A stretch of DNA of 14,223 nucleotides from a virus, in the UHGV virus genome UHGV-0138819; one strand, 5' to 3'. Below, one piece after another: positions 320 through 13,681 of this stretch; the stretch's first letter is position 1; the number at the start of each line of letters is the position of its first letter. A program made the position numbers and the translations under genes. Under the pieces are notes generated by a model, which saw nothing but the letters and a program-made list of their open reading frames with translations, was not told the origin of the DNA and searched no databases.

Positions 320-1702
320 ATGTTGTCACTCAGAGAGACAAACAAAATGGCACACACACCGATCAATCACACCATCATCCGTAACGGGATCTACTACGTC
401 AGCTTTCGCCTGTCGGGTCATAAATATTTCCGTCGGTCGTTAGAGACAGATAGCCACAGCCACGCGCAACTCTTGATGTCATTTGCATCTCCAGCCATTC
501 CATTAGTCAAACGTGGAACCATTCACCCGGATCAGTTTGGTCAACGTCTTTCTGATTTCAGCAACCGCTTAAAGCAACAGAATGAACACTGGCTGGTTCA
601 ACAATTTCTCAGTGATGAACGGCGCAATCTTCAGCCGATAGTTGTTCAGGAATACCGGGAGACTGTTACACCTTCAGAAGATGAGGAAGAACAAACTGAA
701 GCACAGTCAAAGGATGTGTTAACACTGGCTGGCGCTTGGAATATGTACAAAAAGGAGAAAGCCCAAAACTGGACGAAGGCAATTTCACAGGCCAATGAGC
801 GCTTTATGGAAGTCATGTTCATTGTCCTCGGTGCATCAACAGACGTAACGACGATAACCAAGCAGGACATCAAGCAGGTGATGGAAGTTGTTGAAAACTT
901 ACCAAAGCGTGTTGTACAGCCTTATCGGTCGATGACGGTTCAGCAACTGATCGAGTGTGATGATGTGCCACCTGAAGATTTGGTTGGCGCTGAGTCTATC
1001 CACAAGCATTTGAAGATTTACAAATCGCTCTTCAAAACCTTCCTGACTGATAATAAAGATATTCTGGAGAAGTCTCCGACAGATGGAGTAGTCGCCGCAC
1101 CGTCAAAAGCGAGGTTTGGTGCATACAGTGCGGCAGAAATGAGAAAGTTTGTGGGGTGGGCGCTCAAGCAGCCTGATGGCTGGCAGAAATGGATCACCTT
1201 GTTGTTGGCGTATACGGGAGCCAGAAGAGGGGAGATCGCCAAGCTGGAGAAATCACAGATCAAATTTGATGAAGATAGCCAGCGGCACTATCTCCTGATA
1301 GCGGAAGGAGGGCAGGGGAAAACCGAGAATGCTACAAGGCAGGTGGCTATCCATCCCAAACTGATCGAGTGGGGTTTTCTTGATTTTGTAAACCGCCAAT
1401 GGAAAGAGAAAATCTTCTCGCCTGTGTCAGGTAAGAACATGCCAAAAATCGGCAAAGTCTTGGCTGATGTCCGTGATCAGCTTGGTATTCCGTACCTTGA
1501 TGATTATGGGCAGCGGCGATTAGTGCATAGTTTCCGGCATACCATGATTTCAACCTGTTTAGCTGGTTGGGTTGGGAACTTAGCGCACTTGCAACAGGTG
1601 GTTGGGCACGAGAAAAGCGGGTCAGGGATCACTCGGCGCTATCTTCATACGTTCCCGCTTTCCACTGTTTGTTATGTGATTGATGGCTTGGGTTGGTTGT
1701 AG
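320..1702 (+). CDS. int: Tyrosine site-specific integrase
   Basis: 460-aa ORF. C-terminal catalytic motifs are visible: TGARRGE (Arg), HSFRHT (His-x-x-Arg), VGHE, RRYLH (Tyr nucleophile). Alternative start at ATG 347 with a purine-rich AGAGAG upstream. Confidence 0.85.
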   Translation: MLSLRETNKMAHTPINHTIIRNGIYYVSFRLSGHKYFRRSLETDSHSHAQLLMSFASPAIPLVKRGTIHPDQFGQRLSDFSNRLKQQNEHWLVQQFLSDERRNLQPIVVQEYRETVTPSEDEEEQTEAQSKDVLTLAGAWNMYKKEKAQNWTKAISQANERFMEVMFIVLGASTDVTTITKQDIKQVMEVVENLPKRVVQPYRSMTVQQLIECDDVPPEDLVGAESIHKHLKIYKSLFKTFLTDNKDILEKSPTDGVVAAPSKARFGAYSAAEMRKFVGWALKQPDGWQKWITLLLAYTGARRGEIAKLEKSQIKFDEDSQRHYLLIAEGGQGKTENATRQVAIHPKLIEWGFLDFVNRQWKEKIFSPVSGKNMPKIGKVLADVRDQLGIPYLDDYGQRRLVHSFRHTMISTCLAGWVGNLAHLQQVVGHEKSGSGITRRYLHTFPLSTVCYVIDGLGWL

Positions 1703-2759: not shown

Positions 2760-2831
2760 ATCTCCCCCTTGAATGAACTGCCCTCTTCAATGCTAAATTG
2801 CATCCATCGTTCAACGATTATAGTAACAAAG

Positions 2832-2872
2832 TTGATCAATTTTACCGATCGATTTCGTAATTTCGATCGATT
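2832..2872. promoter_or_regulatory. Three GATC sites and two copies of CGATCGATT in the divergent intergenic region
   Basis: GATC at 2834-2837, 2847-2850 and 2865-2868. CGATCGATT at 2846-2854 and 2864-2872. Lies between the minus-strand gene start (2759) and the plus-strand gene start (~2928). Confidence 0.35.
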
Positions 2873-2927
2873 AAAATAATTAAAAATGTTAAGGCACATG
2901 TCGATGGTGTACTTAATCTATTCATCT

Positions 2928-3692
2928 ATGGAGGCTGTTTTGAAAAAGATTCTTGCATTACCTCTTATGTTCTTTTCCTTCTCGTCCTTCTCTGAAGGCG
3001 TTTCGTCTACAGATGTACAACCATACCCTGAGTACCTGGCGGCCTATGTAAAAACGTTGATTGCTGCTGGATGTGAAGAAACATTGAAAGGCGGTTCTGA
3101 GGACGTATTGATCAAACGGGCAACGGAGGGAATGAAGAAGGGCACGACGGGTTACGATAATGTACACAATGCTATCGTGTTGGGGGCTGGTTTCGGTAAT
3201 GGACTGAAGGAAAAAGGAAAACTTATCACAAAAGAAAAAATCGCGATTGATAGTTGTGGTGGTGCAGCGGCCTATACCATGATGCAAAAAGAATTTATAA
3301 AAACGGTCGTTGCTAGTATGACTAATCCGGAACAATCGCAGGTTGCCGATAGTAAACCCAAAGTGCCAGCTTCTGATGATGCAATTTACCGTACAAAAGC
3401 ACTAGCTCTGGCTGAACTTTATAAAGCTAACGAGGTTGCAGCCGATGACAAAATTGGTGGTCGTAAGGTGGAAGTAACCGGAACTGTACAGGACATAACA
3501 AAAAATTTCACGGATGATGTAGTTCTTAAACTTGAAAGCGGTAATCGCTTCATGCCAGTCAGTCTGAGTATGTCTGATTCAGAAAAGGCGAAAGCGTCGA
3601 AATTGGAAAAGGGCCAGAAGATCACCGTGACTTGCGAAAAGATGCAGTTTTTCATCGGTGCACCGTCTGGCGGAAACTGCACCTTTAACTAA
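2928..3692 (+). CDS. Hypothetical secreted protein (~255 aa) with signal peptide and a possible OB-fold-like C-terminal domain
   Basis: Long ORF ending TAA 3690-3692. N-terminus MEAVLKKILALPLMFFSFSSFSEG looks like a signal peptide. Start ambiguous: ATG 2886, 2898, 2928, or TTG 2940 preceded by GGAGG at 2930-2934. The OB-fold resemblance is my guess. Confidence 0.6.
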   Translation: MEAVLKKILALPLMFFSFSSFSEGVSSTDVQPYPEYLAAYVKTLIAAGCEETLKGGSEDVLIKRATEGMKKGTTGYDNVHNAIVLGAGFGNGLKEKGKLITKEKIAIDSCGGAAAYTMMQKEFIKTVVASMTNPEQSQVADSKPKVPASDDAIYRTKALALAELYKANEVAADDKIGGRKVEVTGTVQDITKNFTDDVVLKLESGNRFMPVSLSMSDSEKAKASKLEKGQKITVTCEKMQFFIGAPSGGNCTFN

Positions 3693-3706
3693 TCTGTCAT
3701 ACGGTC

Positions 3707-3727
3707 TGCCGGGTAAAATTCCCGGCA
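3707..3727 (+). other. Hairpin just downstream of the cargo CDS (7-bp stem TGCCGGG/CCCGGCA, 7-nt loop), no U-tract
   Basis: Inverted repeat seen directly. Not followed by a T-run, so terminator function is uncertain. Confidence 0.3.
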
Positions 3728-4986
3728 ACTCATCTACCCCACCTCATGGATGTCCCTGCTATTTGACGATCCAGCTTACATGCTCTTGCTGAAAATATCT
3801 TACGGCTCTCTGGGCCAGGTGCCTGACGTGACAGACGATCCCTCAATAATTTCTTATCTTCTTGCTGAAATATCGCAGAGCCGACAGGCCCAGTAACGTA
3901 TTTCACCACTTCATCCCGTAGAGCATCACAGCAGGGAAAACTTGCCGCAATAGGGCATTCTACTGTTCGTTTTCTGGTCTATTTAACATAATGGTTCTTA
4001 TAAGTACTTGACTGGAATGGTCAGGTATTACTTTTCGGAACGTTGACGCGAAGCTGGGTACACAACAGCGATTTCACCAACAGAAGGAAAGCATTCAGGA
4101 GGATTCGAGGTGAGTTCTCTTGTTCAAGGATTTTGGATGAGTTTGCCTGGTCACCACACAATTTCAGGTTTCAGACCTTTGAGGCTGCCAGTGTGTCAAA
4201 CGCCATAAAAGCACTTTTTTCTGTTTACCAGCAGACACAAAGCCACTACACCGACGTTACCACAACGGGCTGAAGGTCTGCCATCACCTGGTGATATTCA
4301 CGAGCCTGACCGCCACTGTTTCGTACCATTTCCCAAAACAATGTAAACAGCCAACCCACCAATCCCTTCTACGCTCCACCAGAAGCGCTACAGTGCGTTA
4401 TCCCCCCAGATGTAAACTGACGTACCGATAATCCACGACATCCCACAGCGCGATACAGGAACCACCAGAGGACATCTGTTTTAGTTTTAATGTGTCTTTT
4501 TTATTTTTTGTAAAAAGATGGTTCAGAAAGTGGGTTGTGTTTAGCACCCATTCAATTGGCGGATTCGCCTAGGCCGCGCCATTACTGGCTTCGCTGCATG
4601 CACCACACCATAACGCCCATAGGTACAAACTTGTGATTTGTACGTTTAGTGACCACTTTAGCATGATTAACTACGGATTATAGGCTATTTGAGGTGTATT
4701 TAATCTACTTTGTTCGCAGGATAGCCAATGATAAAGATCATCCACCAAATTTTCACAGAAAACTAGTATAGGGTTGCCAATCTTCAGCCAGCGCGGAGAA
4801 TGGTCGGTATTTTCAGATGAAAGCGGGGGAGGGAGATGATCAATTCTCGGAGCGGATCAGGTGCCTGGACCGCCTCAGGTGTTGCCGTCGATTGTGCCAT
4901 TGAAGCATGACGCGGACATATCAAACCAGAAGTTTTCATCGGTACGTTGGTCGCTTGGATGACTTGGAAAATTCTCACCCGGTGAT

Positions 4987-5075
4987 ACCTGCACGATTTT
5001 CGTGTACCCACCCCCTCGATTTTCGAGCACCTACCTGCACGATTTTCGAGTAGGGGGTAGTCGATTTTCGAGCAC
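4987..5075. repeat. Iteron-like array: four CGATTTTCG-centred repeats at 22-23 bp spacing, followed by an AT-rich tract; candidate replication origin or protein-binding array
   Basis: CGATTTTCG at 4994, 5017, 5040 and 5062. ACCTGCACGATTTTCG is exact at 4987-5002 and 5033-5048. CGATTTTCGAGCAC is exact at 5017-5030 and 5062-5075. AATAATAATAAATAACAAT follows at 5076-5094. Confidence 0.55.
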
Positions 5076-5649
5076 AATAATAATAAATAACAATCTCCAT
5101 AAAAGAACTGATAAGAAAAGTACCTCCAGGTCGAGAGCACGGAATGACGGTTGGTCATTCTGTTAGTTTTAATAGTGATGCTTCTGCATCGCTCCGCTCT
5201 GCAATGGCTGGTCAGCCACTTCAGATATGTTTGTGGTAAGAAGCTCACCTTTGCTGACGTGAAACAGCCGCGCCATCTCGTGACCTTCTAACCCTCGTTA
5301 ACACATCGCTACGCTCTGTGACTCGGGTAACCCGACAGGCTACGCCAGAGAGCTACGCTCTCACTCTGTGTGGAAGCTGCGAACTTGTTCGCCATATGTG
5401 GATCGGAGCACGGCGGAGAGGACTGCTTTGCATCTGTCCGGTTCACTCCGGGGCGGCGCGGGTTGTCTAACTGACTTCCTCAGCGCCTCTCTACGGCGTT
5501 TAAATGGTGTGGGTAACACGATGGTACTGCTATAACGACGAGTCCCCGCAGAACGCGTCACAGAACGATCTAGCACTATTGACAAAGATTTTTTAAACTT
5601 GTAATGTTATGGTGATTATTATGCATTATAAAATGCTACATGATAATGA

Positions 5650-5678
5650 TTGCTATTTACAAACAAATCTGATACAAT
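5650..5678 (+). promoter_or_regulatory. Candidate sigma70 promoter for the 5824-10406 operon (TTGCTA, 17-bp spacer, TACAAT)
   Basis: -35 TTGCTA at 5650-5655 and -10 TACAAT at 5673-5678 in an AT-rich region about 145 bp upstream of the first operon ATG. Confidence 0.4.
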
Positions 5679-5823
5679 AGATTTTAGTAGGGTAATGATT
5701 TACCTACGAATCCTCGAATAATTCTGCCGTCATCACGACATTCCTTGTCAACCTCACGGCAATACAAAATGGGTTACAAATAGAACCTCCGCGAATAATT
5801 CTTTTAACAGAACGGAGAACCCA

Positions 5824-6270
5824 ATGAATAAACCAAAATCCCAACGTCTCGACCTGACCACTATGACAGGCGAGCAGATCGCTGATCTCATCCTGAACGG
5901 CAAATACACCAAATCAGCTTTGTGGGCCTTCATTAGTAGAAACGGCGGGGCAGACGCTGTACATGCTCGACTTCCTCAGATCGCCGTCTGCCTGCAAATC
6001 CTGAAGCAGGCGCGGAAGAAAGCGAAGCAGGCACGAGTGGTTAAGACGGTGCTGAAGCCTCTGAGCAATAAATATGCTGAGGGTAATTCCTTAACGCAAA
6101 TCCTGAATCCTGTGTTACAGGGCTACCGCGAGCTATATAGAGAAAAACTGAATCTGGACCTGACACCAGAACAGGTGATCTTGCTCTTGATCGCCACTGA
6201 TGGTGTGGAACGTCTGGAATCCTACGGTTACACCTGTGCGGGTGACTTCCCGACCGCAACCGCAGTCTAA
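5824..6270 (+). CDS. Hypothetical protein (148 aa), first gene of the rightward operon
   Basis: GGAGA 8 nt upstream of the ATG. No family recognised. Confidence 0.6.
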   Translation: MNKPKSQRLDLTTMTGEQIADLILNGKYTKSALWAFISRNGGADAVHARLPQIAVCLQILKQARKKAKQARVVKTVLKPLSNKYAEGNSLTQILNPVLQGYRELYREKLNLDLTPEQVILLLIATDGVERLESYGYTCAGDFPTATAV

Positions 6271-6357
6271 CAACACTGAACAAAACCTGAGCCGGTTCGC
6301 CTTTGGGCGACCACTGGCGGGAGGTCTTTTGTACCTAAAACGAGGAGGACAACTTGA

Positions 6358-6561
6358 ATGAACATCAAATTTCAACAGCACGTTTATCAGGCTCTACTAG
6401 CTGAGGCCAAAAGGCAGGACAAGCCCCTGGCACGGCTCTGTAATGAAATCTTGGAGACTGCCGCGAACATTTTCGACAACACACCAGACATCAAACCAGC
6501 ATTAGCCAGCAAGGCGACACTTTACGGAGAACAGAATGAGCAAACAGAACCGGGACAGTAA
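6358..6561 (+). CDS. Small putative ribbon-helix-helix (Arc/MetJ/CopG-like) DNA-binding protein (67 aa)
   Basis: AGGAGGA upstream of the ATG. N-terminal strand-like MNIKFQQ followed by two predicted helices (QALLAEAKRQ, PLARLCNEILETA). RHH assignment is by pattern only. Confidence 0.55.
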   Translation: MNIKFQQHVYQALLAEAKRQDKPLARLCNEILETAANIFDNTPDIKPALASKATLYGEQNEQTEPGQ

Positions 6562-7282
6562 GGATTTTGTAAAACTTGAATACAGCATTCTCGACCTTAC
6601 CGAGTACAACGGCCTGACCATTAATGGCAACATGAAAATTTTGCTATCTCTGGTTTACAGCTATGACAAAACAGGCAGAACTTATTACGAGTCTGTTGGC
6701 ATGATTGGTAAACGTTGCGGCTGCAAGCCCGAAGCCGTTCGTAATTTCAGGAACAAGCTTCGTGAAGCGGGAATGATCACTTTTGAGGAAGAGCAGGGGA
6801 GAACACACAAAATTTCTCCGGTCGAACTCGATCCATCGTTGATGGTTTTTCTTGACGATCATAATTCCACGCAGGTGAGTAATAGAAAAGTGGAAACCGA
6901 GGAGAGCGGTAAGAATGAGCAGAAACGTGATGTGGAATCTTTCGTGGTGGAACCTGCCGCGCCTGTTGCTGGAAAACCAGACGGCCTACCTGTTGTGGAT
7001 ATTCCTGTCGATGCTGATGTACCTGCCAATGATGATGCGGTGAACGCTTCTGATAGGTATACCGATGAACAATTAGGCACCAAGCTGAGGCGATGGCGCA
7101 ATTGGGGACTGGATGAAGAAGCAAAAGCGTTTTGTCTCTCTCATGGTATCAGCAGCGATGAGGACAGCATGAATCTGTTTATTCAAAATTATCATGTACC
7201 CGCACCGGAGTCAGTAGAACAACAGGTTAACGCCCCAGCAGATGAGCTGCCGCTTGATTATGATGACTCGATCCCTTTCTGA
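6536..7282 (+). CDS. Hypothetical protein (248 aa) with a putative winged-helix DNA-binding segment and acidic C-terminal region; candidate replication initiator or regulator
   Basis: GGAGA 5 nt upstream of the ATG. Overlaps the previous ORF by 26 nt. Segment YESVGMIGKRCGCKPEAVRNFRNKLREAGMI resembles wH/HTH domains. C-terminal half is D/E-rich. Confidence 0.55.
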   Translation: MSKQNRDSKDFVKLEYSILDLTEYNGLTINGNMKILLSLVYSYDKTGRTYYESVGMIGKRCGCKPEAVRNFRNKLREAGMITFEEEQGRTHKISPVELDPSLMVFLDDHNSTQVSNRKVETEESGKNEQKRDVESFVVEPAAPVAGKPDGLPVVDIPVDADVPANDDAVNASDRYTDEQLGTKLRRWRNWGLDEEAKAFCLSHGISSDEDSMNLFIQNYHVPAPESVEQQVNAPADELPLDYDDSIPF

Positions 7283-7296
7283 TACTGGAGGAATAA

Positions 7297-7818
7297 TTGT
7301 GTGATGTTGCCAACAGCCTGACGGCTGAAACCCTTACGGTGCGAAGCACTTTACCAGAGGTAAACAAATCCGGTGCTGACGCCCCTGATTTGTCCCGTTT
7401 TTACAAGGCCCGCTCTCGTGATACCTCGTTGATCGAGACTGCTAAAAAAATGCTCGTTCACGGTTACACCCCAGGCAAAACGGCGCTGCTCCTACGCTTG
7501 CCGTATGACCTGGTAAAAGGCCTTTACGATAACTCGTGGAATCCTCGCTGTCGCAAGATAAGTAATACCAGTCAGTACGCTACTAAGCGAATGGCCCGAA
7601 TGTACTACGAATCCGGCGCAATGCTGGCAAAAATCTGTGCTGACCTTCAACTGCCTCTATTCACTGTGGTAACGCTGCTCAAGCGTGAAGGAATCACTGA
7701 AAAAGAAATGGCATCTCGAATGCCTGTTAGTGATGATCCGTTGTTCATTGAGTACCGGAAGACTATTTCACGCAAGCAGGCAGCGCCCCAACGCCGATCA
7801 CCACGACTGCATTATTAA
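7297..7818 (+). CDS. Hypothetical protein (173 aa), possible tandem HTH-like segments
   Basis: TTG start 5 nt after GGAGG (7287-7291). No family recognised. Confidence 0.5.
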   Translation: MCDVANSLTAETLTVRSTLPEVNKSGADAPDLSRFYKARSRDTSLIETAKKMLVHGYTPGKTALLLRLPYDLVKGLYDNSWNPRCRKISNTSQYATKRMARMYYESGAMLAKICADLQLPLFTVVTLLKREGITEKEMASRMPVSDDPLFIEYRKTISRKQAAPQRRSPRLHY

Positions 7819-7836
7819 TACCCCAGCCGGGGAAAC

Positions 7837-8265
7837 TTGACCCTATTTGAATATTTATCCTTTCTGCCGTTAGCGGTAGCTGTTCTCCAATGGCTTCGTG
7901 ACGGCCTGGACCTCTACAGGAAACATAACAATATGAATAACATTGAAGCAATCCGCGCCAGTATCCGGGAAGCAATGACCGCAGGAACAGACGAACCGGA
8001 AGATCTGAACAAATCCGCTGAAGAAGCATTGGCGGAGGCGGTGCAGAGTTACCTGTCCGCTTCGACTGCAACAGCCAGCGAGCCAGCCCCAAAAAGTGGT
8101 AAAACCATCAAGGAAAAAGGGATCGCTCTGTGCCACCAAGCCCAAGGTTATAGCGCTAATCTGCGTCCGGTAAGTCTCATGATGAAGGCAAGTCTTGATG
8201 AGCTAACACCTGAACAACGCGCCGCGCTTGAGCGTCTGGGTTACGATATCAATCAGGGGGTGTGA
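7837..8265 (+). CDS. Hypothetical protein (142 aa from TTG 7837, or 111 aa from ATG 7933)
   Basis: TTG 7837 preceded by GGGGA. In-frame ATG at 7933 preceded by AGGAAA. Its stop TGA (8263-8265) overlaps the next ATG (8265-8267). Confidence 0.5.
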   Translation: MTLFEYLSFLPLAVAVLQWLRDGLDLYRKHNNMNNIEAIRASIREAMTAGTDEPEDLNKSAEEALAEAVQSYLSASTATASEPAPKSGKTIKEKGIALCHQAQGYSANLRPVSLMMKASLDELTPEQRAALERLGYDINQGV

Positions 8266-10406
8266 TGTCTGGCACAAATAAGATTGTTACCAGCACCGTT
8301 AATGAAATCTCGTGGATCACAGACGATGCCTCATATCAAAAAGCCAAAAAGAAGATTATCTCGCTTAAGGCTGCTCATGAGAAACCAGCTAAAGCGCTTG
8401 AGAAGGCCCAGAAGCGGACCGTCCAGAGTGAAGGCAAAGCAGCACTAGCCGCAGCGAAAGCCCAGACAGCGAAGCTACGCCAGGCTGAACAATTGTCAAA
8501 ACAGCAACAGAAACAAGCTCAGATACAAGCCAAAATGGAACGGGATGCAGTCTCCCACGCTAATAAAATGACCTCATTACAGGCGCGTCAGTTATCCCAG
8601 CAGGAACAGGCCGCACGGCAGAATGCCAGACTAGCAGCGATATCTGACAAGGTGAGACAGGCGAGTCGCTCCCGTGCAATGACCTACAATCCCAACATGC
8701 CTGGAGTTCACTCCGATCCATCTCTGGTGGCACGTCAAAATGCAGCGATGAACCGTGGTCACGGCGCTGTTGCTGCTGACATCGCAGCCACCAAAAAGGC
8801 GATGGCCTTGGAGGAGAAGCGTCAGCGTGAGAAAGAGGCAGGCCTTAAGCGCGAGGTGACTTATTACAACAGTTTGCGCCGTAGCGCTCTGACTCTGGCA
8901 AACGTGAACGGCGCTGACGTTGCAACCCGGTACAAAGCCATCAGTGCAGCAAAAGAGGCACTTAAAGCCCAGAAAGAAGAGCGCTATACGGTTGAAGAGA
9001 CCCGCTTCGAAATGGCTCGTATCACCACCGAATTACGCAAGCAGGCTCGTCTGCAACAGCGTATGACCCGTGAGCAGAAAGCCGCAGGTGTTCGTGCTGG
9101 TCGTGTACGCACAGAAAGCCGTGGTGGTAGAGCTGGTCTTGCAGCTGCTGGTGTTATTGGTGGTGCGTCGTTAGTGGGTAGTATGGGCGTTTCTCGTGTC
9201 GGTCAGACCCTCCAGGGAAGCCTTGAGCGCTCTCGCGATGTGAAAAAACTCCAGCAGTACGGGATCAGCAACCTTGAGTTCGCTGCACTTCAGGATCTCT
9301 CGATGAGCCGTGTTGGTTACTCACTGAGTGCTGACAAGCTGGCTGACCTCAACAAGGACACAACCGAAAAGGCCGGGGAATTGTTAAACACCGGCTCTTT
9401 CAAACGTAACAAGAAAACTGGACAGGTGAATTTCAGCGGCGGTGGCGAGTTCGCAGATATCATCAACAATGTGCTGACCTCCACCAACGGTAACCAGAAG
9501 GTAGCACAGAAGGTGATCGGAGAACTGCAAAAGCTGGATTTTCCGACCTTCATCACTTACCTGAAACAGTTGCAGAAAACTTTCAAATGGACGGACAACC
9601 AGACCCGGCACCTGGCTGAGGCTGTGAATGATGGTTCGGTCTTCCTCGAAGTGTTCAATGATGAGGGGCAGGGACTTATCCAGCGTATGCATCAACTCTC
9701 TTCTGAAGGATGGACCCTATCTGATGCGCAGCAAGCCAACCTCGATAAACTGGCGGCGTTAGGTGCTGAGTACAACCGAGTGCAAACCAGCCTTGCAGAT
9801 CATTTCTCAGCCTCGTTTGTTGAAGGCCTGGGGCAGTACGCTGCCAATACTGAAACTCTACGTCAGAAGATGACTGGACTGATCCCAATTTCCGATGCCC
9901 TCGGCGTTGCCCTTGGTGAGCTAACCACCAACATTCTCTCCTTCTCTGGTCGAGTCGGTGAAGAACTTAAGAAAGGCGCGACATTGCCGGATGCGGTGTA
10001 TACGAGCGTGGTAGATGAATCTGCAAACGGTGCTGCCGATTGGATTAAGGAAAAGACAGGCTTTGATCCACGTAGCATCGGTCAGACGCTTAAGCAGATT
10101 TACCCGTGGCTGGATAGTTCAGCACCGAGCAATATTGGCTCAGGCACGGCGTATAACGATCCAGCGCTAGCGTTGAATGTTCCTAGCCTGAACTATCTGA
10201 CACCCCAGCAACCGACGTTTACGGTTCCGACAATTGACAGCATGACGCTGCGACAGCCGATTCCTGTCAGTGTTACCGGGCAAGCGAACATTAATCAGCA
10301 GATGGATGTGTTTGTCCATGACGATAAGATCGCAGGGCTGGTTGATACCAAGATAAGGGAGAACAACCACGCGCAGAATAACCTCATCCTTGGGATTGCA
10401 GACTAA
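8265..10406 (+). CDS. Large hypothetical protein (~713 aa): Ala/Lys/Gln-rich coiled-coil N-terminal ~300 aa, Gly-rich hydrophobic segment, unrecognised C-terminal region
   Basis: Uninterrupted 2.1 kb ORF with start overlapping the upstream stop (TGATG). Hydrophobic GLAAAGVIGGASLVGSMGV mid-protein. No Walker A, no relaxase HxH motif, no primase zinc-finger pattern seen. Confidence 0.7.
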   Translation: MSGTNKIVTSTVNEISWITDDASYQKAKKKIISLKAAHEKPAKALEKAQKRTVQSEGKAALAAAKAQTAKLRQAEQLSKQQQKQAQIQAKMERDAVSHANKMTSLQARQLSQQEQAARQNARLAAISDKVRQASRSRAMTYNPNMPGVHSDPSLVARQNAAMNRGHGAVAADIAATKKAMALEEKRQREKEAGLKREVTYYNSLRRSALTLANVNGADVATRYKAISAAKEALKAQKEERYTVEETRFEMARITTELRKQARLQQRMTREQKAAGVRAGRVRTESRGGRAGLAAAGVIGGASLVGSMGVSRVGQTLQGSLERSRDVKKLQQYGISNLEFAALQDLSMSRVGYSLSADKLADLNKDTTEKAGELLNTGSFKRNKKTGQVNFSGGGEFADIINNVLTSTNGNQKVAQKVIGELQKLDFPTFITYLKQLQKTFKWTDNQTRHLAEAVNDGSVFLEVFNDEGQGLIQRMHQLSSEGWTLSDAQQANLDKLAALGAEYNRVQTSLADHFSASFVEGLGQYAANTETLRQKMTGLIPISDALGVALGELTTNILSFSGRVGEELKKGATLPDAVYTSVVDESANGAADWIKEKTGFDPRSIGQTLKQIYPWLDSSAPSNIGSGTAYNDPALALNVPSLNYLTPQQPTFTVPTIDSMTLRQPIPVSVTGQANINQQMDVFVHDDKIAGLVDTKIRENNHAQNNLILGIAD

Positions 10407-10440
10407 AATCATCGTTCCGTCGAAAATGGCGCAGCAAATT

Positions 10441-10460
10441 GGCCCACACGAGAGAGGGCC
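10441..10460 (+). terminator. Weak terminator-like hairpin after the 714-aa gene
   Basis: GGCCC (10441-10445) pairs with GGGCC (10456-10460) around a 10-nt loop, followed by a T-rich stretch (GTTATTGTTTTTGTTGTTG). Confidence 0.25.
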
Positions 10461-10490
10461 GTTGAATTCGCCATGTTATTGTTTTTGTTG

Positions 10491-10520
10491 TTGCAAATGA
10501 TAATCATTCGTGTTAAAATA
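10491..10520 (+). promoter_or_regulatory. Fur-box-like palindrome (AATGAT-A-ATCATT) overlapping a candidate sigma70 promoter (TTGCAA, 18-bp spacer, TAAAAT)
   Basis: Perfect 6-1-6 inverted repeat at 10495-10507 inside 10493-10511, about 14/19 match to the Fur consensus GATAATGATAATCATTATC as I recall it. -35 TTGCAA 10491-10496, -10 TAAAAT 10515-10520. Confidence 0.35.
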
Positions 10521-10926
10521 ATATACAAGGTGAATTACAACAGCCAAATGTTTTCCCTTCTCCTTAGGAATCAAAGTGCGCTTTTCCCAGAGCGCCTTTT
10601 CTCATACAGCCAATATTCGCACCCTCTCACGGTAAGGTTAGGCCATTGCCGCTGGCTGTATCAGAAAAGATTTTCTCCGACCTTGGATCGGGGATTTGCC
10701 AAAGCCTTTCATCCTCGGAAGGCCGTCTTGCCAGACGAAAACTGGCATTGAGTGCGGCAGCGAAGATATGAGGTCTCCCGCTGCTGTGCTCCCTCATTCC
10801 TGAAGCGTGACCCGCCGATCATGCTTTCCAAATCTCTCCATCAGAAAATACCATCGTGAAGCTATTAGCAACGCATGTTGCTAACCCGTAAACGGGTGAA
10901 TTTCATCATCTCCGATGATCTACCAA

Positions 10927-10962
10927 CCGGGGCAGGCGTTTTCCTGCCTCCGGCTCTTTTTC
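10927..10962 (+). terminator. Terminator-like hairpin (CCGGGGCAGG / CCTGCC-T-CCGG) followed by CTCTTTTTCT
   Basis: About 10-bp GC-rich stem with one bulge, T-rich tract a few nt downstream. Confidence 0.4.
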
Positions 10963-10984
10963 TGTTGGGAATACAAATAAAAGA

Positions 10985-11010
10985 ATGCCGTCCGATGGAC
11001 GGTATTTTTT
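10985..11010. terminator. Rho-independent terminator, probably bidirectional
   Basis: Stem ATGCCGTCC / GGACGGTAT with loop GAT, then TTTTT on the plus strand. The plus-strand AAATAAAAG just upstream gives a U-rich tract on the minus strand. Confidence 0.6.
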
Positions 11011-11049
11011 CAACACAACCCGGCATATTCGCCGGATTATAAAAATTGC

Positions 11050-11412
11050 ATGGAGATACAACAAAATATGGCATTCGAACATGAAAGCAAAACCCCACAG
11101 GATGTATTGGTTTATACCGATAGCCCGATCTTTCATAAGCGCACCGTGATCTTTGATCTGGCTGCTGATGTGACTTGTGGTGATGTGATTAACCCGACCA
11201 CTGGCGCGGCATACGTTGCAGCCGATGCTGATAACTGTGCTGTAGCTCTGCAAAATCAAATCGCTGGTGATGCCCGTAGCCTGGTCATTTCAGACCGTGG
11301 CTGTGTGTTCAATCCATCTGGTCTGGTTGTAGCGGCTGCTGCAAAAGATGCTGCTTACGCTGCCCTTGTTAAGCAAGGCAACCGCATTGCTGACGCAAAC
11401 ACTGCAATCTAA
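11050..11412 (+). CDS. Putative phage head decoration-like protein (120 aa, or 114 aa from ATG 11068)
   Basis: Small Ala/Gly/Val/Asp-rich protein immediately upstream of a ~340-aa capsid-like ORF, the lambda D-E arrangement. Product call is inference from size, composition and gene order. GGAGA at 11052-11056 fits the 11068 start. Confidence 0.5.
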   Translation: MEIQQNMAFEHESKTPQDVLVYTDSPIFHKRTVIFDLAADVTCGDVINPTTGAAYVAADADNCAVALQNQIAGDARSLVISDRGCVFNPSGLVVAAAAKDAAYAALVKQGNRIADANTAI

Positions 11413-11430
11413 TCAAGGAGTGATAACAAT

Positions 11431-12447
11431 ATGAAATTAAGTGATTTTACTAACCTTTCCGGTCAGTTTGTGAAGCCAAGCGGCGAGGGGTTCCTTCTGT
11501 CCAGCCTGGGGATCTTTACCAGCCGTCCAAGTGATACGCAAATCATCGCGCTCGACACACTGGAAGATGTGCAGCGTGAAGTGACCAAATCTGTTGCCCG
11601 TTATGGTTCTGAAATGTCCGGTCTAAACTTCCCTAAAGCGGCTAACGTGACTGTTCAGGCTCCACTGCATGTCTACAGCTCAACCATCACCAGCCAGGAT
11701 TGGCAGGGGAAACGTCAGCCGGGAACAAATCGCCAGATGACCGCTGAAGATGTAGTTGCTAATCATACCCTGAAGCACTACCTGCAAACCCGCCGTGATG
11801 TTGAATATGCCATGGCGCAGAGCCTGCTTCACAATACTGTAGAGGCGACACACCTTCGTGAAGGTCCTGATCTGAACTGGCAAACCTTCTGGGGTATTAA
11901 CCAGCCGTCTGCTGTGGTGAAAACTGGCATCAGTGCCAACGTTATTACTGAGATGCAGAACGCTGTCACGCTGCTGAAGAAAAATCTGGGTGGCTGGTCT
12001 TCCAGCATCAAGCAGGTTTATCTGCTAGCGAGTCCGAGTCTTTTCACCGCCATTCAAGGCAACCCAACCGCATATCAGGCGGCTCTGTTTGGTGCTACGT
12101 CCCGTGACATCATTTTCCCTGACACTTTGGGCGCATATGATCGATACAACATCGGGCGCGTAACTGTAGTTCAGGTTGACGATCCGCTATACGGCATTGC
12201 AGATGGTGAAGGCTACATGCTGGCGACGTTCTCCAATGTTGTTGAAGGCGACCTTTCACCTTATATGACTTACCAGACTCCGGCGAGCCGTCATGCTGAC
12301 GTTGCTAATGGTCCGGTTTATCCGTCTTACCATTACGTTCTGCGTGATAAGTTCATGAATTATGAGGTGGTCAGCGAGCTATCACAAATTCAGATCCCAA
12401 TGCGTCCAGACTTCGTTTTGAAAATTACGATGGATGACGCGGCGTAA
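11431..12447 (+). CDS. Putative major capsid protein (338 aa), possibly lambda gpE-like
   Basis: AGGAG upstream of the ATG. Length and position after the small decoration-like ORF fit a major capsid protein. Family assignment not verified. Confidence 0.6.
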   Translation: MKLSDFTNLSGQFVKPSGEGFLLSSLGIFTSRPSDTQIIALDTLEDVQREVTKSVARYGSEMSGLNFPKAANVTVQAPLHVYSSTITSQDWQGKRQPGTNRQMTAEDVVANHTLKHYLQTRRDVEYAMAQSLLHNTVEATHLREGPDLNWQTFWGINQPSAVVKTGISANVITEMQNAVTLLKKNLGGWSSSIKQVYLLASPSLFTAIQGNPTAYQAALFGATSRDIIFPDTLGAYDRYNIGRVTVVQVDDPLYGIADGEGYMLATFSNVVEGDLSPYMTYQTPASRHADVANGPVYPSYHYVLRDKFMNYEVVSELSQIQIPMRPDFVLKITMDDAA

Positions 12448-13435: not shown

Positions 13436-13556
13436 CCTGTCACACATAGACCAAAAGGGCCGCTTTTACCGTTTACAAGACTTCCCGCTGGCATTACTAT
13501 CCTGATCAGGGATTAATGAGGAGCATTAATCGCAAGCTTTTGATTTTATAGTACAT

Positions 13557-13627
13557 GACTCGGGGTGCCCTTCTTTGTGAAGGCTGAGAAATACCCGTAT
13601 TACCTGATCTGGATAATGCCAGCGTAG
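13557..13627 (+). repeat. attR: element-derived riboswitch-like 5' arm plus shared core; right copy of the 71-bp direct repeat
   Basis: Differs from 188-258 at three positions (TT for GC at 13575-13576, T for C at 13601). Canonical host sequence resumes after 13627 (GGAAGTCACGG...). Confidence 0.8.
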
Positions 13628-13681
13628 GGAAGTCACGGACCACCAGGTCATTGCTTCTTCACGTTATGGCAGGAGCAAACT
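13557..13681 (+). promoter_or_regulatory. TPP (thi-box) riboswitch in the thiM 5' leader, hybrid of element-derived 5' aptamer half and host 3' half plus expression platform
   Basis: GGGGTGCCCTTCT..GTGAAGGCTGAGAAATACCCGTAT.ACCTGATCTGGATAATGCCAGCGTAGGGAAGTCACGGACCACCAGGTCATTGCTTCTTCACGTTATGGCAGGAGCAAACTATG matches the E. coli thiM riboswitch as I recall it, apart from three substitutions in the 5' half. Confidence 0.85.

Follow-up and report, generated by a model that had tools for sequence, protein, structure and literature searches.

In an island of the Escherichia coli chromosome that encodes its own capsid protein, a strongly conserved sigma-70-type promoter appears to drive a structured non-coding RNA of about 485 nt, predicted to end at an intrinsic terminator just ahead of the head genes. 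Our reading is that the 17-bp spacer of this promoter serves as a functional, exchangeable operator cassette, and that the cassette found in the E. coli islands is a Fur-type operator, as predicted from its sequence. The RNA family and the cassette-like spacer are the more robust and the newer result, more so than the control by Fur. The DNA analysed, hereafter the window, is a stretch of 14,223 nucleotides (UHGV virus genome UHGV-0138819), and all coordinates refer to it unless a related locus is named; the features are listed in Table 1.

Sequence identical to the window is carried by the chromosomes of E. coli TC24 and AREA_C483. The order at the insertion locus is rcnR, an island of ~13 kb and thiM, with the island inserted into the TPP riboswitch of E. 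coli thiM. It is flanked by direct repeats of 71 nt that differ at 3 positions (187-258 and 13556-13627). The left copy of the riboswitch is truncated and the right copy is complete (TPP riboswitch match at 13551-13647, 73.6 bits). The 5' part of the right copy and the sequence upstream of it are island DNA, so that the riboswitch seems to be restored by the island, which probably supplies the thiMD promoter as well. The same site is used by the Klebsiella relatives L088 and L226-L228.

The gene content is that of a satellite-like element, and relatives were found in Klebsiella, Raoultella, Enterobacter, Pseudocitrobacter, Kluyvera, Silvania and Pantoea, with more distant ones in Aeromonas. 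No portal, protease, terminase or connector was matched among the ten largest ORFs, and no iron-related gene was found in the island by RefSeq annotation, Pfam or PHROG comparison. Identification of a helper through the capsid and tape-measure-like proteins was tried and abandoned: the major capsid protein gave no tblastn match (E <= 1e-5) among 50,697 phage genomes, and the tape-measure-like protein gave only patchy matches, its tape-measure similarity being patchy too. The islands may form a family of capsid-encoding satellites, perhaps of an undescribed type; our literature search found no paper on these islands, on thiM integration or on Fur boxes associated with satellites. Inside the ORF-free stretch, four CGATTTTCGAG iterons (~4995-5065) lie beside an AT-rich tract (5075-5100), and together they are likely to be the origin of the satellite. 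The same stretch holds a cluster of promoters at 5570-5690, and comparable gaps of ~2 kb occur in L005, L088, L090, L234 and L235.

Table 1. Features of the island in window coordinates, in order of position
Feature	Position	Strand	Remarks
Tyrosine integrase	320-1702		
Sie-like / tRNA_anti-like protein	2886-3692		
ORF-free stretch, 2.1 kb	3700-5820		unannotated in RefSeq; no credible ORF
Second Fur-like site, GATAATGATTGCTATTTAC	5642-5660		16.6 bits; 13/19 on + strand, 14/19 on - strand
HTH / DnaD-like replication initiator	6536-7282		within a block of small genes
Tape-measure-like protein	8262-10406		714 aa
640-bp gap	between tape-measure-like gene and lambda-D-like gene		holds palindrome and promoter
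-35 hexamer, TTGCAA	10491-10496	+	TTGCAA, TTGTAA or TTGACA in ~20 related islands
Predicted 19-bp Fur-type operator, GCAAATGATAATCATTCGT	10493-10511		14/19 to consensus; 18.3 bits
Perfect palindrome, AATGAT-A-ATCATT	10496-10508		in promoter spacer
Extended -10 element, TGT-TAAAAT	10511-10519	+	TG at 10511-10512, TAAAAT at 10514-10519
Predicted structured non-coding RNA, ~485 nt	10526-11012	+	start from -10 element, 3' end from terminator
First hairpin, then CTTTTCT	10578-10595	+	kept with different arms in L002, L072 and L007
Long helix, CTTTTCTCATACAGCCA / TGGCTGTATCAGAAAAG	10596-10669	+	predicted
Conserved RNA core	10687-10801	+	helices P2, P3 and P4
P2	10706-10709/10719-10722	+	CU-rich UCCUC loop
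P3	10724-10727/10734-10737	+	
P4	10750-10762/10779-10791	+	predicted in each of 14 sequence types
3' domain, closed by CCATCAGAAAA / TTTTCTGTTGG	10838-10968	+	variable inserted hairpins, e.g. 10865-10884, 10885-10896
Intrinsic terminator, GCCGTCC-GAT-GGACGGT then TTTTTT	10980-11012	+	ends 38 nt before D-like gene
Head-decoration (lambda D)-like gene	11050-11412	+	weak Pfam HDPD match, E = 6e-4, under curated cut-off
Major capsid protein, lambda E / HK97-fold type	11431-12447	+	phrog_29, E = 2.5e-9; RefSeq: major capsid protein

A promoter scan of the + strand between 10000 and 11500 returned one sigma-70-like site only, TTGCAA-17-TAAAAT, with 9 of 12 matches and an extended -10 element; the 17 bp between its hexamers read ATGATAATCATTCGTGT. 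About 25 related loci were collected for comparison. Almost everywhere among them the -35 hexamer, the 17-bp spacing and the TGnTAAAAT motif are kept, and the spacer is variable. The exceptions in the -10 region are L229/L232, which lack the TG, and L005/L031, which have TAAACT. Hexamers and spacing of the sigma-70 extended -10 type are retained in about 20 islands from six genera. In the sense of such strong conservation we take the promoter to be real, with the start position predicted from the -10 element. The preliminary description had reported that a perfect AATGAT-A-ATCATT repeat overlaps the spacer and the -35 hexamer of this promoter, in the layout of a Fur-repressed promoter. The sequence at 10491-10519 is as stated, the palindrome sharing the final base of the -35 hexamer and taking up most of the spacer, and the layout was confirmed too, in that the 19-mer at 10493-10511 takes in the 3' end of the -35 hexamer and the entire spacer as far as the TG. 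The palindrome as evidence in itself was nevertheless discarded, four perfect 6-1-6 palindromes occurring in the window where 3.5 are expected. Matches of 14/19 to the Fur consensus number three in the window (0.35 expected), and neither the palindrome count nor the consensus count is compelling when taken alone.

A search for the Fur consensus allowing up to three mismatches gave no match, because the site at 10493-10511 has five mismatches, all of them within the outer triplets, and a Fur weight matrix was therefore built. The matrix was symmetrised and iterated from the consensus, using as training set 13 Fur-controlled promoter regions of E. coli K-12 (fepA-fes, fepD-entS, fepB-entC, fhuA, fur, fiu, tonB, cirA, exbB, ryhB, fecI, fhuF and fhuE). 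With this matrix the site scores 18.3 bits, compared to 8.0-23.3 bits for the training sites (6.6-22.0 in leave-one-out), and a score as high was attained by 0.3% of 3000 Markov-shuffled windows (P about 0.003). The maximum over 168 kb of K-12 DNA outside the training regions was 15.3 bits, so that the resemblance of the palindrome to a Fur box, another point of the preliminary description, was borne out by a score above background and in the upper part of the training range. Furthermore, the matrix-picked fepB-entC site shares the 14-mer AAATGATAATCATT with the window. The L002-type variant, AATAATAATCATTC (15.5 bits), is present in 23 other E. coli genomes and has 14 nt identical to the matrix-picked ryhB site and 13 nt identical to the fhuA site. 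By sequence and position, the 19-mer is thus predicted to be a bona fide Fur-type operator with the palindrome as its core, and it is so placed that binding would occlude RNA polymerase. The site has one perfect NATWAT hexamer and two with 4/6 matches, where strong natural operators have three or more in clusters of overlapping sites, and the overlapping shifted Fur-like sites are weak (12/19 at 10487, 8.3 bits at 10499).

Such scores have to be read against what is known of E. coli K-12, in which 363 Fur clusters have been predicted, 83% of them overlapping sigma-70 promoters (Chen et al. 2007, PMC2189734); AT-rich promoter DNA therefore inflates Fur matches. Moreover, strong predicted sites at oppA (21.5 bits) and acnA were not found to be Fur-repressed in published microarray data (PMC2189734), and a good Fur score is hence not proof of regulation.

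The second Fur-like site of the window overlaps the -35 hexamer of the other main promoter of the island (TTGCTA-17-TACAAT, 5650-5678), which precedes the block of replication genes. In none of the 3000 shuffled windows did two sites with 16.5 bits or more occur together. The second site is common to the L003-type island and absent from the L002-type island, and a different site, of 16.5 bits, lies at the equivalent promoter of the Klebsiella island L088 (position 4028). We take the site at 5642-5660 to resemble the tonB operator.

The distribution of the spacers among the islands defines how far the Fur-like character extends. Every E. coli island found carries a Fur-like spacer (~41 genomes in four sequence types), as do six IMG/VR contigs and one Pseudocitrobacter island (L007). 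The operator scores 15.5-18.3 bits in all the E. coli islands found and in L007, where the 17-mer CAAATGATAATCATTCG occurs as the exact reverse complement with a score of 18.3 bits, as expected for a symmetric dimer site. In about half of the sampled islands the hexamers are kept with spacers that have no resemblance to Fur sites. These spacers score below 11 bits in L006, L008, L011, L012, L013, L088 and L090 and are not Fur-like by sequence in L223, L226/L227 and L229/L232; many of the non-Fur-like spacers contain ATAGT. They occur in islands of Klebsiella, Enterobacter, Pantoea and Raoultella-type contigs and in one of the two islands of a Pseudocitrobacter genome. Compared to L012 (spacer AAGAAATAATCCCATGA) and L013, the window differs at 10-11 of the 17 spacer positions, with ~95% identity just downstream. 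Similarly, L007 (3919-3947) and L008 (3928-3956), both in one Pseudocitrobacter vendiensis genome, have near-identical flanks around wholly different spacers of 17-20 bp. Such swaps between near-identical flanks suggest that factors specific to the island or to its helper recognise the spacer as a specificity determinant. The same 29-bp Fur-like promoter also recurs ahead of three different leaders, in islands that share only 25-32% identity in their capsid proteins.

As the Fur-like spacer is one of several swappable cassettes, iron control would be specific to a lineage and not a defining feature of the islands; the iron wiring, if real, would be a lineage-specific overlay. The earlier proposal that the promoter is wired to Fur thus survives in part: a predicted Fur-type site is there in the E. 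coli lineage, but it is not a conserved property of the promoter, many orthologues of which score below 11 bits. Regarding phages, a blastn search of 10470-10600 against the 50,697 genomes gave only spurious matches to Lak phages. An exact 16-mer scan of 2.9 million viral contigs gave 73 matches, of which 6 are related islands and the rest lie in unrelated contexts. Mimicry of a helper promoter was dismissed, as none of the phage genomes and viral contigs searched, other than the islands, has this promoter context.

What lies downstream of the promoter is better defined than its regulation. It had been noted beforehand that this region holds no credible ORF and that the product might be a non-coding RNA or a long leader of the capsid operon. 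The absence of coding capacity stood up to comparison. An ORF of 73 aa with its end at 10751, or 67 aa when counted from the ATG at 10548, was rejected as coding, having no counterpart in homologous islands; no conserved ORF is common to the homologous leaders, and the longest ORFs of those islands differ in position, frame and sequence. Of the two products considered, a discrete, conserved, structured and terminated non-coding RNA is the one retained, and a plain leader of the capsid operon is not. The minimum free energy of 10526-11012 is -180.4 kcal/mol, which relative to shuffled sequences corresponds to z = -6.96 on the + strand versus z = -4.18 on the - strand. A search of the whole window against Rfam 15 gave only the TPP riboswitch at 13551-13647, and comparison of 3600-11200 with 4227 Rfam models gave no credible match at E <= 1. 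Homologous leaders were recognised in 19 islands; they are 428-765 nt long and align to one architecture, in which hairpin modules have been inserted or have changed place.

Compensatory changes were found in several helices of the RNA. The long helix that follows the first hairpin has in L002 the equivalent CTTTTGTGATGT / ACATCACAAAAG, with compensatory changes. In the conserved core, RNAalifold detected double changes at 7 of the 10 pairs of P2 and P3, with pair types such as GC:6 UA:5 UG:2, CG:10 UA:4 and AU:8 GC:6. Eight P2/P3 pairs are formed in 93.3% of the cells, compared to 25-54% in controls with slid partners, and their covariation score is 0.473, against 0.220 for shuffled alignments; neither the pairing nor the covariation was reached by any of the 500 shuffles. 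When whole leaders were aligned with MAFFT and folded with RNAalifold, the modular insertions misaligned P1 and P4, so that only P2 and P3 were recovered; P4 was assessed sequence by sequence. This hairpin was predicted independently in 14 of 14 sequence types with different arms, for example GAGUGCGGC/GCUGUGCUC, GAGCGCGAC/GUCGCGCUC, AGGUGUGCA/UGCACACCU and GAGUGCGAU/AUCGCACUC. P4 includes G-U pairs, for which the opposite strand would have A-C, in keeping with a transcript from the + strand. With a covariance model of the core, 16 islands were recognised at 69-108 bits; a metagenome scan with ATCTCTCCATCAGAA for homologues of the RNA returned 120 loci, none of them homologous. Taken together, the compensatory pairs, a stability beyond that of shuffled sequences and the lack of a conserved ORF characterise a structured non-coding RNA.

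Some parts of the RNA are variable or recur in other places. The first hairpin could act as a weak early terminator giving a species of ~75 nt that ends at 10595-10603. In the 3' domain, L003 and L012 have the same hairpin module at a different place. A module of ~50 nt with two hairpins (UUAGCAAC-loop-GUUGCUAA, then CCCGUAAACGGG; 10865-10898 in the window) takes varying positions within the RNA, being located also at ~3320-3375 in L003 and ~4420-4470 in L007, as if it were a mobile RNA domain. CU-rich single-stranded motifs also recur, among them the UCCUC loop of P2, CUCCCUCAUUCCU and AUCUCUCCAU, and a 5' AAGGUGAU is notable as well. All of these match the complements of Shine-Dalgarno-like sequences, the GGAGA before the D-like gene among them, a complementarity too generic to serve as evidence.

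The 3' end of the RNA is equally constant in its arrangement. A hairpin followed by a T-run is found there in nearly all homologues, with stems that differ in sequence, and the D-like gene is always 3' of the RNA in the related islands. The stretch from the promoter to the head genes contains three terminator-like hairpins, and the + strand scan of 10000-11500 found no other promoter-like site upstream of these genes. Without a second recognisable promoter, transcription of the head genes probably requires read-through or antitermination, or else an activator-dependent promoter that was not recognised. In the interval from the terminator to the ribosome-binding site of the D-like gene (11012-11050) there is a conserved hairpin, CCGGCATATTCGCCGG, with TATAAA behind it; this may be an RNA element, or else a late promoter that depends on an activator and has no -35 hexamer.

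Combining these observations, we put at even chances a model in which, in the E. coli lineage, Fur-Fe2+ represses the RNA promoter by binding at about -33 to -15, so that the RNA would be made under iron limitation. In this model, the predicted operator occupies the spacer of a strong extended -10 sigma-70 promoter; iron-loaded Fur would sit on it and block RNA polymerase (both occupancy and direction of regulation are inferred), and the RNA would be made mainly when iron is scarce. Transcription from the promoter would yield the structured RNA of ~485 nt and be halted at the intrinsic terminator before the D-like and capsid genes, and any read-through into the head genes would come under the same control. 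Fur repression is plausible for the E. coli island lineage.

An alternative is that the spacer serves as operator for a regulator encoded by the island or by a helper, such as a repressor or a late activator, or as a loading site for a Q-type antiterminator, with the alleles reflecting specificity and the likeness to Fur sites being incidental or only partly relevant. The discrete spacer alleles in near-identical contexts (the window versus L012/L013) would be explained in this way, as would the different alleles of L007 and L008, co-resident in one genome, and the concentration of the Fur-like allele in E. coli islands among hosts that all have the same Fur specificity. A strong promoter, a terminated leader and structural genes in a layout like that of lambda PR'-6S RNA-tR', with three terminator-like hairpins ahead of the head genes, would also suit such a regulator. 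However, no similar sequence to the promoter region exists in the 50,697 phage genomes, and among the 73 exact 16-mer matches the promoter context is seen only in the 6 islands themselves. The palindrome lacks the second copy in the island that is usual for an autoregulated repressor, variation in the tape-measure-like protein does not follow the spacer allele, and an accidental Fur match of 18 bits is unlikely at P about 0.003. Taking both sides into account, we consider a dedicated regulator somewhat unlikely.

It is improbable, in our view, that the promoter is essentially constitutive, needing of its spacer only 17 bp and AT-richness, and that the palindrome has no partner of consequence. 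Spacer identity among the non-Fur-like islands is 0.51, versus 0.64 for the flanks, which means that drift of the spacer is tolerated in much of the family; perfect 6-1-6 palindromes are about as frequent as chance predicts, and AT-rich promoter-like DNA often scores as Fur-like (PMC2189734). Against this, Fur-like spacers show 0-1 differences while their flanks are ~65% and the capsids ~25-32% identical, a comparison that is partly circular as the group is defined by its spacer. Both the common variant (15.5 bits) and the flipped version (18.3 bits) score high, and the score of the window site exceeds that of every background position in 168 kb. A role at the level of DNA, with the palindrome as a protein-binding site within a packaging site (cos/pac) or replication origin, is very improbable. 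Satellites do need a packaging signal, and the island has only two large non-coding regions, of which this one adjoins the head genes. Yet the compensatory changes in the helices, the use of G-U pairs, which would be A-C on the other strand, and the better fold of the + strand (z = -7.0 versus -4.2) argue for an RNA rather than a DNA element, and the conserved geometry of -35 and extended -10 elements is that of a promoter. The origin-type iterons and AT-rich tract lie in the other non-coding region (~4990-5100), and a cos or ori reading of the palindrome region was accordingly given up in favour of RNA.

Regarding the function of the RNA, we lean, from its fixed position, towards a control in cis of the head genes through termination, read-through or access to the ribosome-binding site. 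As a speculation, Fur de-repression would coincide with high levels of FhuA, FepA and CirA, and hence with exposure to TonB-dependent siphophages, a signal to which a satellite of lambda-like phages could usefully respond. A wider scheme would have a new Enterobacterales family of capsid-encoding satellites, each with such a structured RNA in the fixed order promoter, RNA, terminator and head genes, in which a swappable 17-bp cassette sets the signal that induces the RNA, the E. coli cassette reads iron starvation as a possible cue of helper infection, and the RNA controls read-through or translation of the capsid genes or acts on the helper; as a whole we regard this scheme as rather unlikely.

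Likenesses to known systems exist on both the promoter and the RNA side. As in the fepB-entC, fhuA and ryhB promoters, a 19-bp Fur-type operator is predicted to lie over the core promoter and, as with ryhB, the product is a non-coding RNA. Unlike Fur-repressed iron promoters, the site belongs to a mobile satellite-like element without iron genes and, unlike those of E. coli, the operator is missing from many orthologous promoters. RyhB is ~90 nt long and Hfq-dependent, whereas the island RNA is ~485 nt long and highly structured; it has no match to RyhB in Rfam and is not a small RNA of the RyhB type. Prophage genes can be controlled by host iron repressors, as are stx1 by Fur and the corynephage tox gene by DtxR. 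The island promoter is similar in being carried by a mobile element with an operator, here predicted, for an iron-sensing repressor of the host. Those promoters, though, serve toxin genes of benefit to the host, whereas that of the island serves a structured RNA beside satellite capsid genes.

In phage lambda, PR' is followed by 6S RNA and the terminator tR', and the Q-binding element is located between -35 and -10. The island resembles this arrangement in having a strong promoter with a terminated non-coding leader directly 5' of structural genes, and a sequence-specific element between -35 and -10; in both cases the structural genes would need read-through of the terminator. The differences are that no Q gene or known Q-binding sequence was found in the island and no matching phage promoter in databases, and that the leader is more than twice as long as 6S RNA and has a conserved, covarying structure, for which lambda 6S RNA is, to our knowledge, not known. 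By eye, no convincing sigma-dependent pause element (-10-like) was seen near the promoter. The promoter does not qualify as a lambdoid Q-dependent late promoter; downstream terminators are present.

Like GOLLD and ROOL, the island RNA is several hundred nt long with many helices and modular inserted hairpins, and its carriers are phage-related; it differs from them in having no Rfam match and a fixed place in the order promoter, RNA, terminator, head genes. The island itself is like capsid-forming PICIs and P4-like satellites in its size of ~13 kb, its integrase, its own replication module and its capsid-related genes. In contrast to these, it encodes only the D-like, major capsid and tape-measure-like proteins (among the ten largest ORFs), and its capsid protein has no relative among sequenced phages.

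Control by Fur, if true, would make this the first phage-satellite-like element known to us to be wired to a host iron regulator; a full-text literature search for Fur boxes together with phage satellites found nothing. Independently of Fur, an undescribed family of islands has a covarying RNA of ~485 nt, outside Rfam and always located between a strong promoter and the head genes, and a promoter spacer that acts as a swappable regulatory cassette. RNA and cassette both bear on how a satellite times the expression of its own capsid genes relative to host and helper.

Two further arrangements were observed among the relatives. In L005 (4007-4889) and L023 (1687-2565, - strand), where the gene order diverges, the Fur-like promoter is identical and the first ~13 transcribed bases are unchanged; they are followed by a non-homologous leader of ~880 nt that is not recognised by the covariance model of the RNA core. 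The ~1 kb preceding this leader contains several more Fur-like sites of moderate score (13-15 bits). In Pantoea cypripedii (L090), two related islands adjoin each other in opposite orientation (2795-11333 and 13077-21020), each with its own pair of D-like and capsid genes and its own non-coding gap of ~2 kb.
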